Assembly: GCA_034660555.1 (NCBI GenBank)
Contig: JAYEJL010000058.1
Span: 1 to 15,083, forward strand
DNA from: Thermotogota bacterium
GTDB lineage: Bacteria > Thermotogota > Thermotogae > Petrotogales > Kosmotogaceae
DNA length: 15,083 nucleotides
Direction of reading: 5' to 3'
Within the stretch, counting starts at the first letter, position 1, and the number at the start of each line of letters is the position of its first letter. The translations under genes and the position numbers were made by a program. Shown here piece by piece: positions 1 to 2,238 of this stretch. Below the pieces are notes generated by a model. That model worked only from the letters and a program-made list of their open reading frames with translations. It was not told the origin of the DNA and did no database searches.

Positions 1-73
1 AATAGGTGAATAGTTGTTTCAATCCTTCCTCGTTTTCTACTAGAAACTGTTGTATAATATTCTTTAGTTTCAT
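1..73 (-). CDS. N-terminus of a probable IS256-family transposase (truncated by window edge)
   Basis: Minus-strand ATG at 73 preceded by SD AAGGAGGG (90-83). Reads MKLKNIIQQFLVENEEGLKQLFTY with no stop before the edge. Resembles, from memory, IS256 transposase N-termini (..EGLKxLxTxFLN..) and lies just inside an IS256-like terminal repeat. Confidence 0.7.
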   Translation of the reverse strand, partial: MKLKNIIQQFLVENEEGLKQLFTY

Positions 74-157
74 GCCCTGTATCCCTCCTTTATATAGGTT
101 TGTCCTATTATAGGATACAGGGCTTTTCTCTTTTTACAGCACTCATTTTACACTGTT
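1..157 (-). mobile_element. Left end of a probable IS256-family insertion sequence
   Basis: Minus strand from ~157 reads AACAGTGTAAAATGAGTGCTGTAAAAAG, similar to IS256-family termini of the ISEf1/IS16 type (recalled as GAGAGTGTAAAATATTTTGTGTAAA). It is followed by a TATAAT (112-107), an 11-bp inverted repeat (74-84/113-123), an SD and the ORF. The exact end is uncertain by a few bases. Confidence 0.65.
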
Positions 158-163
158 TGTTAT

Positions 164-407
164 AAAAAACTGCCAAGAAAACCCCGTATGCTTGCATCGG
201 GGATGAATTGGCAAAATAATTAAAAAGAGCACTTGACAAATTCTAAATATGATAGTAAATACATATATAAACAGGAGGTTTTAATACGTTGGGGCGCAGC
301 GGAATTAACGCTTGTAGAGATGATTCGTTGGAGTCGTCGTCGAAGCAAGAAAAAGAATACCTAGAAAACTAAGCAGAAGCCACGGAGCTTGCCCTGTGGA
401 GTGTCAC
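164..407 (+). mobile_element. Non-autonomous, internally deleted IS200/IS605-family (tnpB-type) element, MITE/PATE-like
   Basis: Left hairpin CCCCG(T)ATGC-TT-GCATCGGGG (182-202) is preceded by AAAA (178-181), with TTAT at 160-163. Right hairpin CCACGGAGC-TT-GCCCTGTGG (380-399) is preceded by GAAG (376-379) and the element ends in TCAC (404-407). Both guide/cleavage tetranucleotide pairs follow the IS608 pairing rule (AAAG/TTAC, GAAT/TCAA), and both hairpins share a GC-TT-GC tip. Confidence 0.85.
283..372 (+). pseudogene. tnpB: Remnant of the extreme 3' end of tnpB
   Basis: Frame reads NTLGRSGINACRDDSLESSSKQEKEYLEN*, typical of the TnpB C-terminal tail (NTxGxxGINACGD...KQE) that overlaps the omega-RNA. 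There is no upstream RuvC or Zn-ribbon coding sequence, and an in-frame TAA sits at 268-270. Confidence 0.7.
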
Positions 408-423
408 AAATAAATGATTAAAT
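283..423 (+). ncRNA. Putative TnpB omega-RNA (reRNA) scaffold plus flank-derived guide (~408-423)
   Basis: CTTG(311-314)/CAAG(346-349) closes a GATGATTC(319-326)/GAGTCGTC(331-338) hairpin, the usual GCTTGTrGAG...GAAGCArGAA scaffold pattern, followed by the right-end hairpin. Boundaries are approximate and expression is not shown. Confidence 0.6.
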
Positions 424-471
424 CATATTATATAACGAAAAATCAGGTTTTATTAGAATTAATGATTTCCT

Positions 472-1248
472 TTAAAAGATGTTGTTGCTGGAAAGTAGTT
501 CTTTTATAACCTTAGGATGTATACCCCAGCCAGCGTTAAGAAATTGATTTTCTTCAACAATTTTGCCCTGTTTTCGTATTTTTGGACTGAACCCTAGAGG
601 AATATGTACTGTTCTGCTTTGAATACCCCAGAGTTTGCCATTTATATCAACTATTGGTCCGCCACTGTGACCAAAAAATCCTGGAGTAGAAGTTTCAATG
701 AAAGCAAGGGTTTTCTTTGAATCTTTAAAGGCTTTTGAGATAACTTTTCTTGTGTAAATGCCTTCAATAGGATAAAGAGATGGAAGTGTTTTAGCATCCA
801 TTACGAAGTTTCCTTTTTGTTCATCAAATCTCGCATTGATGTTGGAAAAGGGGTAACCGATTTTGCAGAGACTAGTACCGATGGACATTTCTTCCTCATT
901 AATGAATTCTGGATAACAATTAATCTCATTTGGAGAAAATGGTACTAGTTTTCCAATAACCAGGTCGCTTTCAGGGTATGCTTTTACTTCTTTTAAAACG
1001 CGACCATCTTTTCCCCACCAGAATGAATGATTTAGTATTCGTCTATCGTATTCTTTATCAGGATTTTCCTTTTGTTCTTTGTACTGAAAGTAAGATTGCC
1101 ACAGATGAGCAACTGTAATTATCCATCCTTCTTCGTTGAGTATTATGAAAGAACCGCAACTTGCATTAACTTTACCATCTGAAAACCTTGTAAGTACAAC
1201 CACAGGATTTGTGAAGTCCTTTGCTATTTCGAAAGCTCTTGCAAACAT
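472..1248 (-). CDS. Trypsin-like serine protease (S1/Trypsin_2), no signal peptide
   Basis: Catalytic motifs ITVAH (His), SDLVIG (Asp) and GHSGGP (Ser), plus [12 protein letters not shown] and GKLWGI; 258 aa. Confidence 0.88.
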
Positions 1249-1380
1249 ATTTTCACATCCTTTTCTATCTATAACTTTAATACTAACACAATTTGATAAT
1301 TACAAAAGCCCTGAATTTTTATCTACTGTCAGAAATAGTGTACTATAATAATGAGAAAACATTTTAGGGAGGTAAAGCTG

Positions 1381-2238
1381 ATGAGTTTAACAACTAATGT
1401 GGACAGGGTGATTAAGATTTCCGTTATGGGAGAAATTGCTCATCCTATAACAAGCTCTCCATTTAGACTTGATGCAGAGGGAAAACCTCATTTAACTCCA
1501 GGAACAGGTGGAATTACATACAACTTTGCTCTGGGAGACAATGCTTTTGAAGTAGCAGGTGACCACATAGAACCGGATGTTTCAACGAAGAATTTTGATA
1601 AAGAAAAAGGGAATGCCTATATGACATATTCCTGCATAGGGAATGAAGCCTTTGTGATCACAGGAGACGCAAAGGATGAGAAAGGACGTGTTATAGGAAA
1701 GCATGGGGGCATAAATCACGTTCTTGTATATTTTCCTAGAGATGTTAAGGAGAAACTTGCAATCGGAGATAAGATACAGATAAAGGCGTGGGGTCAAGGT
1801 CTTAAGCTTGAAGATTACCCAAACGTTAAAATCTTTAATATAGATCCTGAGGTTCTTGAAAAGCTTTCTTTGACTGAAAAAGAGAGCAAAATTCATTTTC
1901 CCGTAGTCACGAAAATCCCGGGATATCTTATGGGCTCGGGAGTTGGTTCAAGAAATCCAGGAGGCACAGATTACGACATAATCACCCATGATCAAAAGCT
2001 TATGGAAAGATTGGGCCTAACAAAATTGAAAATAGGTGATTTTGTAGCTATAGAGAACCATAACAATAGCTTTGGTGTAGGCGGTTATAAAGAGAACGCA
2101 ATCTCAATTGGGGTCGTTGTACATTCGAATTGTTACAGTACCGGTCATGGTCCCGGGGTAGTTGTCATAATGACTTCGCCTGAACCGGTAATTATTCCAG
2201 AAATAAAAGAAGAAGTAAATTTGAAAAATTTCTTTTAA
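1381..2238 (+). CDS. DUF4438 family protein (Thermotoga TM1086-like)
   Basis: Motifs PGTGGITYN, GDHIEPDVS, SCIGNEA, GKHGGINHV, MGSGVG, DYDI and GHGPGV. Start moved to ATG 1381 because of SD GGGAGGT (1367-1373); TATAAT at 1344-1349. Confidence 0.85.
   Translation: MSLTTNVDRVIKISVMGEIAHPITSSPFRLDAEGKPHLTPGTGGITYNFALGDNAFEVAGDHIEPDVSTKNFDKEKGNAYMTYSCIGNEAFVITGDAKDEKGRVIGKHGGINHVLVYFPRDVKEKLAIGDKIQIKAWGQGLKLEDYPNVKIFNIDPEVLEKLSLTEKESKIHFPVVTKIPGYLMGSGVGSRNPGGTDYDIITHDQKLMERLGLTKLKIGDFVAIENHNNSFGVGGYKENAISIGVVVHSNCYSTGHGPGVVVIMTSPEPVIIPEIKEEVNLKNFF

Follow-up and report, generated by a model that had tools for sequence, protein, structure and literature searches.

The DNA analysed here (the window) is a stretch of 15,083 nucleotides from a contig of a Thermotogota bacterium. 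In an intergenic setting on its plus strand, at positions 164–407, it carries a 244-bp non-autonomous miniature of the IS200/IS605 family (IS605-type), directly preceded by TTAT and ending in TCAC. We refer to it as the window copy. It belongs to the protein-less IS200/IS605 deletion derivatives known as PATEs: no protein-coding gene lies between its ends, no open reading frame (ORF) of at least 60 aa overlaps 164–407, and the sole coding remnant is a tail of 29–31 codons of tnpB. The genome of origin (G000) is a draft metagenome-assembled genome (MAG) of 188 contigs and 2.11 Mb, 95.5% complete, and a second locus in it, G000:C55:429–671 on the minus strand, holds a further copy (the C55 copy), which fixes the boundaries. 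A preliminary description, made from the letters of the window alone, had proposed a protein-less miniature of exactly this length, and both its extent and its lack of genes held up.

Elements such as IS608 and ISDra2 carry subterminal hairpins and insert 3′ of a 4–5-nt site without target duplication; a tetranucleotide 5′ of each hairpin pairs with the cleavage site, and the guide-RNA scaffold overlaps the 3′ end of tnpB. The target, which also serves as the target-adjacent motif (TAM), is TTAC or TTGAT in these elements, and the pairs of IS608 are AAAG/TTAC and GAAT/TCAA. The window copy likewise has imperfect subterminal hairpins at both ends and no terminal inverted repeats, as is typical of IS200/IS605 (Table 1). 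Both hairpins and the tetranucleotide pairs named in the preliminary description (AAAA/TTAT on the left, GAAG/TCAC on the right) are present in the sequence, and the pairs parallel those of IS608. At the left end (LE), CAAGAAAAC is near-invariant in the family, the DNA of the window copy folds at −10.4 kcal/mol (z −3.2), and relatives show compensatory variants of the stem (ATGC/GCAT, GGGC/GCCC, and CCGC/GCGG). At the right end (RE), all 21 aligned sequences have GAAG. The TTGACA hexamer had been described as lacking a clean −10 box at 17 bp, and this is the case: the hexamer at that distance is TAAATA, and a promoter scan of the window returned no sigma-70-like site at 233.

Table 1. Features of the window copy and its flanks, in window coordinates (nt).
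Feature	Position	Strand	Remarks
TTAT, target site / predicted TAM	160–163	+	directly 5′ of the element; usually GTTAT
Whole miniature	164–407	+	identity with the C55 copy stops exactly at both boundaries
Outer stem around LE hairpin	171–176/208–213	+	
AAAA, putative left DNA guide for TTAT	178–181	+	directly 5′ of LE hairpin; role by analogy with IS608
LE subterminal hairpin, CCCCG-T-ATGC-TT-GCAT-CGGGG	182–202	+	5 bp + bulged T + 4 bp, TT loop
LE promoter remnant	233–261	+	TTGACA (233–238) kept; −10 degraded to TAAATA (256–261), 17 nt downstream
AGGAGG, Shine-Dalgarno (SD) of the parent's first gene (ribbon-helix-helix ORF/tnpA operon)	273–278	+	
Deletion junction	279–285		blastn high-scoring pairs stop at query 114–116 and resume at 120
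omega-RNA scaffold homologue	283–407	+	RNAalifold consensus, model R1
tnpB tail, last ~29 codons + stop (370–372)	286–372	+	translation, tblastn
Scaffold helices	287–291/297–301, 311–315/345–349, 319–326/331–338, 358–364/369–375, 376–377/404–405, 380–387/392–399		
GAAG, putative right DNA guide for TCAC	376–379	+	directly 5′ of RE hairpin; role by analogy with IS608
RE subterminal hairpin	380–399	+	relatives: 9-bp stem, TT loop; window copy: one G-T pair, one A-C mismatch
TCAC, right cleavage site	404–407	+	last bases of the element
Flank, AAATAAATGATTAAAT	408–423	+	16-nt guide if a read-through omega-RNA were made; by position only

Sensitive blastn searches, run with the complete element and with each end separately, revealed exactly two copies in G000 and no partial LE or RE at any contig edge. 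The C55 copy is 92% identical to the window copy, is also preceded by TTAT, and shares the same internal junction at another locus with unrelated flanks, so that the further copy with the same deletion foreseen in the preliminary description does exist. Identity between the two runs from the base after GTTAT through GTGTCAC and then diverges. Identity that ends at TTAT on one side and after TCAC on the other, within unrelated flanks, is the signature of transposition and not of segmental duplication. Because the same junction recurs at a second locus, the miniature was moved or acquired as a miniature at least twice, and the alignment indicates that it has moved as such at least once. Separately, we observed that the C55 copy adjoins a short ORF (G000:C55:672–751, minus strand) with a strong SD (GGAGGG, then ATG), which reads across TTAT into the element and would, without the insertion, end two codons past TTAT at ~28 aa.

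Relatives were collected with a 21-base right-end pattern that required only the 3′ half of the hairpin and is therefore not biased towards scaffold retention. The 70 fetched loci (L-numbers) comprise one species-representative genome (a Spirochaetota MAG), 56 metagenome contigs, and 13 viral contigs, and some of them are duplicates of one contig (e.g., L018 = L074); two G000 loci are numbered in the same way (L002 on C55, L004 on C87). blastn and tblastn searches across the 70 loci revealed a full-length parent type of 1,880 bp in five distinct loci (L011, L018 = L074, L034, L040, and L067), with L073 and L020 as further full-length candidates that were partly detected or cut by contig ends. 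The parent follows TTAT and consists of the LE, a small ribbon-helix-helix (RHH) ORF, tnpA (Y1), tnpB, and an RE ending in GTGTCAC; its LE carries the hairpin, TTGACA-N17-TATATT, and AGGAG. The 134-aa TnpA matches PF01797 (127.6 bits) and NF033573 (151.5 bits), and the 386-aa TnpB matches PF01385 (104.2 bits), PF07282, PF12323, and NF040570 (341.7 bits) and is homologous to solved TnpB (PDB chains 8h1j and 8bf8, E 1.7e-62). The ends of the window copy are homologous to those of the tnpA/tnpB-bearing elements in L011, L018, L034, L040, and L067, as expected of an IS200/IS605 derivative. The full tnpA/tnpB element with the same ends that the preliminary description anticipated is thus found in contigs of other organisms, but not in G000.

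Compared with the L018 element, the window copy consists of an LE part corresponding to 5–111 and an RE part corresponding to 1756–1880, and ~1,640 bp are missing at the junction, comprising the RHH ORF, tnpA, and most of tnpB. AGGAGG aligns with the AGGAG(G/A) found 7–8 nt ahead of the start codon (ATG) of the RHH ORF in L011, L018, and L040, and the RE part starts about 29–31 codons upstream of the tnpB stop; translation of 271–372 gives an in-frame TnpB tail ending in NTLGRSGINACRDDSLESSSKQEKEYLEN and the stop, and residues 356–386 of the L018 TnpB align to window 277–369 with 77% identity (tblastn, E 1.8e-6). The earlier statement that the SD is joined directly to the last ~30 codons of tnpB is therefore correct. 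AATAC is present both in the start region of the RHH ORF and in the tnpB tail, and a microhomology-mediated deletion would be a plausible origin of the junction.

Two further features of the family concern its gene content. The ORF between LE and tnpA encodes 53 aa (L018:1260–1418; also in L011, L034, L040, and L067), matches a ribbon-helix-helix (CopG) model at 19.9 bits, under the 20.5 cut-off, and is interrupted by a stop in L011; it could serve the tnpA/tnpB operon as a small regulator. A second TnpB lineage of 416–419 aa occurs without tnpA in ~1.4-kb elements (L023, L031, L042, L043, L047, and L072) that have the same LE and the same RE hairpin and TCAC with a different RNA region. This lineage looks unrelated to the first. 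The common ends suggest that a single TnpA recognition system serves two guide-nuclease modules.

The left flanks of 30 LE occurrences form 25 distinct LE-plus-flank combinations. In 23 of these, TTAT lies 5–7 nt ahead of the conserved CTGCC, at exactly 6 nt in 19 of the 23 and with a preceding G in 20 of them; both exceptions are variants of one TCAT-flanked hybrid locus. A stricter first pass had given TTAT at 22/25 occurrences. The sequence after TCAC differs among the distinct contigs of the 70 loci, and the right flanks show neither relatedness nor duplication. This is the IS200/IS605 pattern of insertion 3′ of a defined 4–5-nt site with no duplication of the target, and these alignments support TTAT (probably GTTAT) as its target site and, at the level of insertion sites, as its TAM, in line with the TTAT-type TAM predicted earlier.

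The retained right part corresponds to a conserved RNA structure. An RNAalifold alignment of 21 sequences (20 distinct) gave a consensus of 34 pairs in six helices, 15 pairs of which show compensatory changes, and helix 1 alone contains 9–10 double changes at four of its five pairs. With the structure held fixed, 98.4% of cells were paired, compared with 88.1 ± 0.7% in shuffles (0/500 as high) and 35–51% in slid controls in which the partner was moved by 1–3 columns, a comparison that somewhat favours the structure, which was predicted from the alignment later used to score it. In full-length relatives the structured block consists of the last ~90 nt of tnpB plus the 35 nt to TCAC, and the window copy keeps all of it (283–407). 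A scaffold that overlaps the 3′ end of tnpB, ends at the RE boundary, and is supported by covariation at the family level is what characterises omega-RNAs. Since helix 1 begins at 287, the deletion junction lies 2–6 nt upstream of the scaffold, as expected from the proposal that the deletion stops near the scaffold start.

A covariance model (R1) built from 15 relatives, with both G000 copies excluded, scored L018 at 153.2, L027 at 149.7, the C55 copy at 145.1, and window 283–407 at 125.5 bits, all covering positions 1–125; in G000 it recovered only the two copies, the next match having an E value of 0.38. The end-to-end match of the window copy and the recurrence of its ends in the 70 loci go far beyond chance. 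In an Rfam cmscan of window 1–1500 (E ≤ 10), no match reached its gathering score, and of six sub-threshold, chance-level matches none fell on the scaffold at 283–407; MIR4416 (+, 96–212) and DsrA (−, 179–269) only clip the left-end part.

Both copies are damaged, each in a different part. In the window copy, two of the seven pairs of helix 4 are broken (359–374 and 361–372; TACCTAG versus TGCTTAG in 16/20 distinct sequences), as is pair 386–393 of the RE hairpin. Its 125-nt RNA has a minimum free energy (MFE) of −31.2 kcal/mol (z −0.57), no better than shuffles, and both 3′ helices are lost from the MFE structure, whereas the same block reaches −45.7 (z −4.56) in L018, −40.5 to −46.3 in three other miniatures, and −48.9 (z −4.88) in the C55 copy, whose scaffold is intact. 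At the DNA level, the RE hairpin of the window copy folds at −3.1 kcal/mol versus −6.5 in L018 and the C55 copy, and its LE is intact (−10.4 versus −10.8 kcal/mol in L018). The inner LE stem of the C55 copy has three G-to-A disruptions (−6.5 kcal/mol). The −10 box TATATT of the relatives now reads TAAATA or TAAACA in the two copies, and the C55 copy also has TTAACA for TTGACA.

No partner genes were recovered from G000. PF01385 had no matches, and tblastn searches for the cognate TnpA, for either TnpB type, and for the RHH ORF returned only the two tail remnants. The lone PF07282 match (19.7 bits) falls on the zinc ribbon of NrdD, an anaerobic ribonucleotide reductase, and was rejected as a TnpB. 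The sole Y1 (HUH) gene (PF01797; G000:C87:11445–12170, L004:1468–2193) is nearest to the REP-associated tyrosine transposase (RAYT) model at 61.5 bits, under the 80-bit cut-off; having no relationship to the cognate TnpA (BLASTP E 0.55) and being interrupted by a stop, it was rejected as the mobiliser. This gene stops after 133 codons, with a 67-aa ORF about 120 nt downstream, and may be a broken RAYT.

The reading we favour, at a probability of roughly 80%, is that the window copy is a deletion-derivative PATE of an IS605-type element that was mobilised in trans and is now orphaned and decaying in this genome. A single internal deletion of ~1.64 kb would have joined the left end, with its hairpin, promoter, and SD, to the terminal ~125 nt, that is, to the omega-RNA scaffold overlapping the 3′ end of tnpB together with the RE hairpin. 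A TnpA acting in trans would then have excised the top strand between the end of TTAT and the end of TCAC and inserted it 3′ of another TTAT by single-strand peel-and-paste, and at least one such move would account for the two copies. As long as the cell had a cognate TnpB, transcription starting at the LE promoter and running past the RE could have produced an omega-RNA with the flank as guide, and TnpB in trans could have cut the emptied TTAT plus flank so that the element was re-copied there by recombination. Today both copies would be orphans in decay, lacking partner genes, with the −10 box lost and one end hairpin damaged in each, together with scaffold helix 4 in the window copy, which is most likely inactive here. 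This scheme is modelled partly on what is generally known of IS608 and ISDra2 and partly on the Geobacillus stearothermophilus elements (PMC10055086).

Several observations weigh against parts of this reading. The 8% difference between the two copies makes two separate acquisitions of one miniature lineage as possible as one transposition within the lineage. A tnpA/tnpB copy may be hidden from the draft assembly, since insertion sequences (IS) often remain unassembled or unbinned, and DNA runs of the same study carry more RE-bearing contigs with other flanks. Binding of TnpB might persist in part, because G-U pairs are tolerated in RNA and the scaffold of the window copy still scores 125.5 bits over the whole model. 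AT-rich DNA can also be transcribed without a consensus −10 box.

Sequencing reads and related genomes were consulted as well. A contig from an RNA library that covers 283–407 differs from the window copy at 16 positions and hence represents a related right end of another element. Among read contigs matched to window 1–1000, none joined 163 to 408. The empty TTAT site was not recoverable from genomes of the same genus: the adjacent peptidase gene is conserved in them (92% and 78% identity), with intergenic DNA too diverged for comparison.

The preliminary description had gone further and cast the element as a currently working mobile guide-RNA cassette whose transcript loads a TnpB made from another locus and directs it to the empty allele, TTAT followed by AAATAAATGATT. 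It had itself named the lack of a cognate tnpA/tnpB in the genome as a result that would speak against this, and neither gene is there as far as the 95.5%-complete, 188-contig assembly shows. We regard a working cassette as improbable. The complete scaffold with its end-to-end match to R1, the intact LE hairpin, and the retained TTGACA and ends speak for it, and a TnpB could hide in the draft; no second TTAT-plus-guide sequence occurs in the assembly either, even when 3 mismatches are allowed for the window copy and 2 for the C55 copy, as expected of a guide that matches only an emptied site. Yet neither Pfam profiles nor tblastn recovered a tnpB or an IS200-type tnpA, no contig end carries a partial LE or RE, the −10 box is gone, helix 4 and the RE hairpin have broken pairs, the RNA folds no better than shuffles, and the RE DNA hairpin is weakened.

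Even less probable is that the element has become a domesticated small RNA or a cis-regulatory insert that acts on host genes without TnpB, as proposed in Halobacterium. In H. salinarum a PATE-derived RNA is expressed, and that report (PMC4615843) describes altered growth on its over-expression. The sole promoter-scan site near the window copy, a weak GTCACA-N17-TATTAT at 403–431, points outward from the RE, but one such site was found where 2.0 were expected by chance, and it faces the 3′ end of a convergent trypsin-like peptidase gene. The structure of the window copy is also degrading and not conserved, and a search of 150 other genomes of the class found the element in none of them.

Least probable of all is that a full IS degenerated at its original site without ever moving in miniature form, the second copy having arisen by segmental duplication or an independent identical deletion: the decay of both copies and the AATAC microhomology, which could favour recurrent deletion, would suit it, but the copies share their junction to the base while the other four junction-mapped types each differ, and identity stops exactly at the element ends between unrelated flanks.

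The window copy is one of a larger series of miniatures in this family. At least six types have different junctions (window/C55, L027, L045, L055, L054, and L057/L064), and a seventh, L062/L061, derives from the second TnpB lineage and consists of the LE, the last ~30 codons, and the RE. As the junctions differ among types, the deletions are independent. The window/C55 type keeps 125 nt of the RE, with its junction right after the SD; L027 keeps 135, L045 144, and L055 173–177 nt, each with its own junction; L054 keeps 160 nt and is cut on its left side by a contig end; and L057/L064, a diverged subfamily, keep about 116 nt or more. Mapping of five types to L018 placed the RE-side breakpoint 4–52 nt upstream of the first omega-RNA helix, with 125–177 nt kept, and in several types the LE promoter is placed directly ahead of the scaffold. 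Only deeper-cutting types lost the scaffold altogether, with 23 nt of the RE kept: L025/L070 (114 nt overall) and the 47-nt LE/RE hybrids in L066 and L033/L053/L059. In these hybrids (L066:2975–3021; L033, L053, and L059), the LE 5′ arm is joined to the RE 3′ arm via a shared GCTTGCC loop region, one following TTAT and the other TCAT; they could represent the smallest derivatives or have arisen by LE–RE recombination.

The sample of miniatures is small, and we draw no statistical claim from it. Tentatively, and with odds somewhat short of even, scaffold-retaining PATEs could represent a selected life-style and not random debris. If so, the miniatures would parasitise both enzymes of the parent, relying on TnpA for movement and on TnpB for being copied back into the donor sites they had left, and a promoter with a complete guide scaffold would be the price of the TnpB service. 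The series of natural deletions by itself defines the 5′ limit of the TnpB guide scaffold, at about 121–125 nt. For the present genome the element matters little, being an orphan fossil of a mobile element that was probably acquired horizontally. Its value lies in being a clean, well-bounded example with a recoverable family, which comprises a parent IS605, a second TnpB lineage on shared TnpA ends, and graded independent miniatures, and the series offers material for asking whether gene-less elements exploit TnpB homing in trans.

Distribution analysis revealed no match to the element at E ≤ 1e-6 in any of 150 other genomes of the class; among 60 relatives, three gave only 34–67-nt matches (E about 3e-4), and the plasmid and isolate-phage collections yielded none. 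The other members of the family come from metagenome contigs, viral contigs, and a single Spirochaetota MAG, and horizontal arrival would be the simplest reading of its presence in G000. The Spirochaetota locus (L010, 3001–3128, minus strand) has a diverged scaffold scoring 71 bits with R1 and the same RE hairpin. It was rejected as a case of scaffold and TnpB occurring together, the genome having only a 32-aa TnpB fragment, and is another orphaned remnant in a different phylum. The viral contigs (L067–L079), several of which are 50–180 kb long, contain full-length IS605 copies and second-lineage TnpB elements, and phages are a plausible vehicle for the spread of the family across phyla.

Next to the miniature, the window starts (1–156) inside another multi-copy repeat, comprising a minus-strand gene start (ATG 71–73) and, upstream, an inverted repeat at 75–123. 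It has many copies in all four genomes of the same genus, often at contig ends, and its contig depth in a DNA run is about 10–28 times that of the remaining locus. The miniature starts only ~7 nt past this repeat, which is probably the end of a different, high-copy IS.

Comparison with known systems places the window copy among several described elements. It differs from IS608 and ISDra2 in having no genes and in its TTAT target in place of TTAC or TTGAT, and its parent has the additional RHH ORF. REPIN/RAYT systems are similar in that short, hairpin-bearing, non-autonomous repeats are moved by a Y1 transposase in trans, and the only Y1 gene of G000 is RAYT-like; however, the ends of the window copy match IS605 elements and not the surroundings of that gene.

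Among PATEs, the preprint by Meers et al. (2023; PMC10055086) states that these elements often encode omega-RNAs that need TnpB in trans. The G. stearothermophilus PATE-like elements described there resemble the window copy in having no protein genes and in combining the LE and RE of a TnpA/TnpB family. They belong to another sequence family and another host, and their genome contains the cognate tnpA and many tnpB genes, whereas none were found in G000, where the copies are decaying. A PATE-like sequence of ~271 nt from Halanaerobium hydrogeniformans (2020; PMC7290912) lacks tnpA and combines a piece of the LE with its hairpin, the final 58 nt of the tnpB ORF, and the complete RE, and by this description it shares the build of the window copy, namely LE, tnpB tail, and RE. 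It keeps only 28 nt of the LE, without promoter or SD, and the published description of its ends and hairpins differs; it occurs among 22 IS605 copies, one with an intact tnpA, and the paper does not discuss guide RNA. The PATE-derived RNA VNG_R0052 of H. salinarum (2015; PMC4615843) is transcribed from a fused LE and RE. According to that paper, it too belongs to IS200/IS605, and its RE-proximal RNA overlaps the region now recognised as the omega-RNA of IS1341-type tnpB; unlike the window copy it is archaeal, carries a UUCA tetraloop motif, and was interpreted without TnpB guidance, expression being shown for VNG_R0052 only. A 2023 IStron preprint also figures a PATE. Our literature search, with subscription journals, figures, and supplements outside it, found no paper that tests the use of PATE omega-RNAs in trans. 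The idea itself is already in print.

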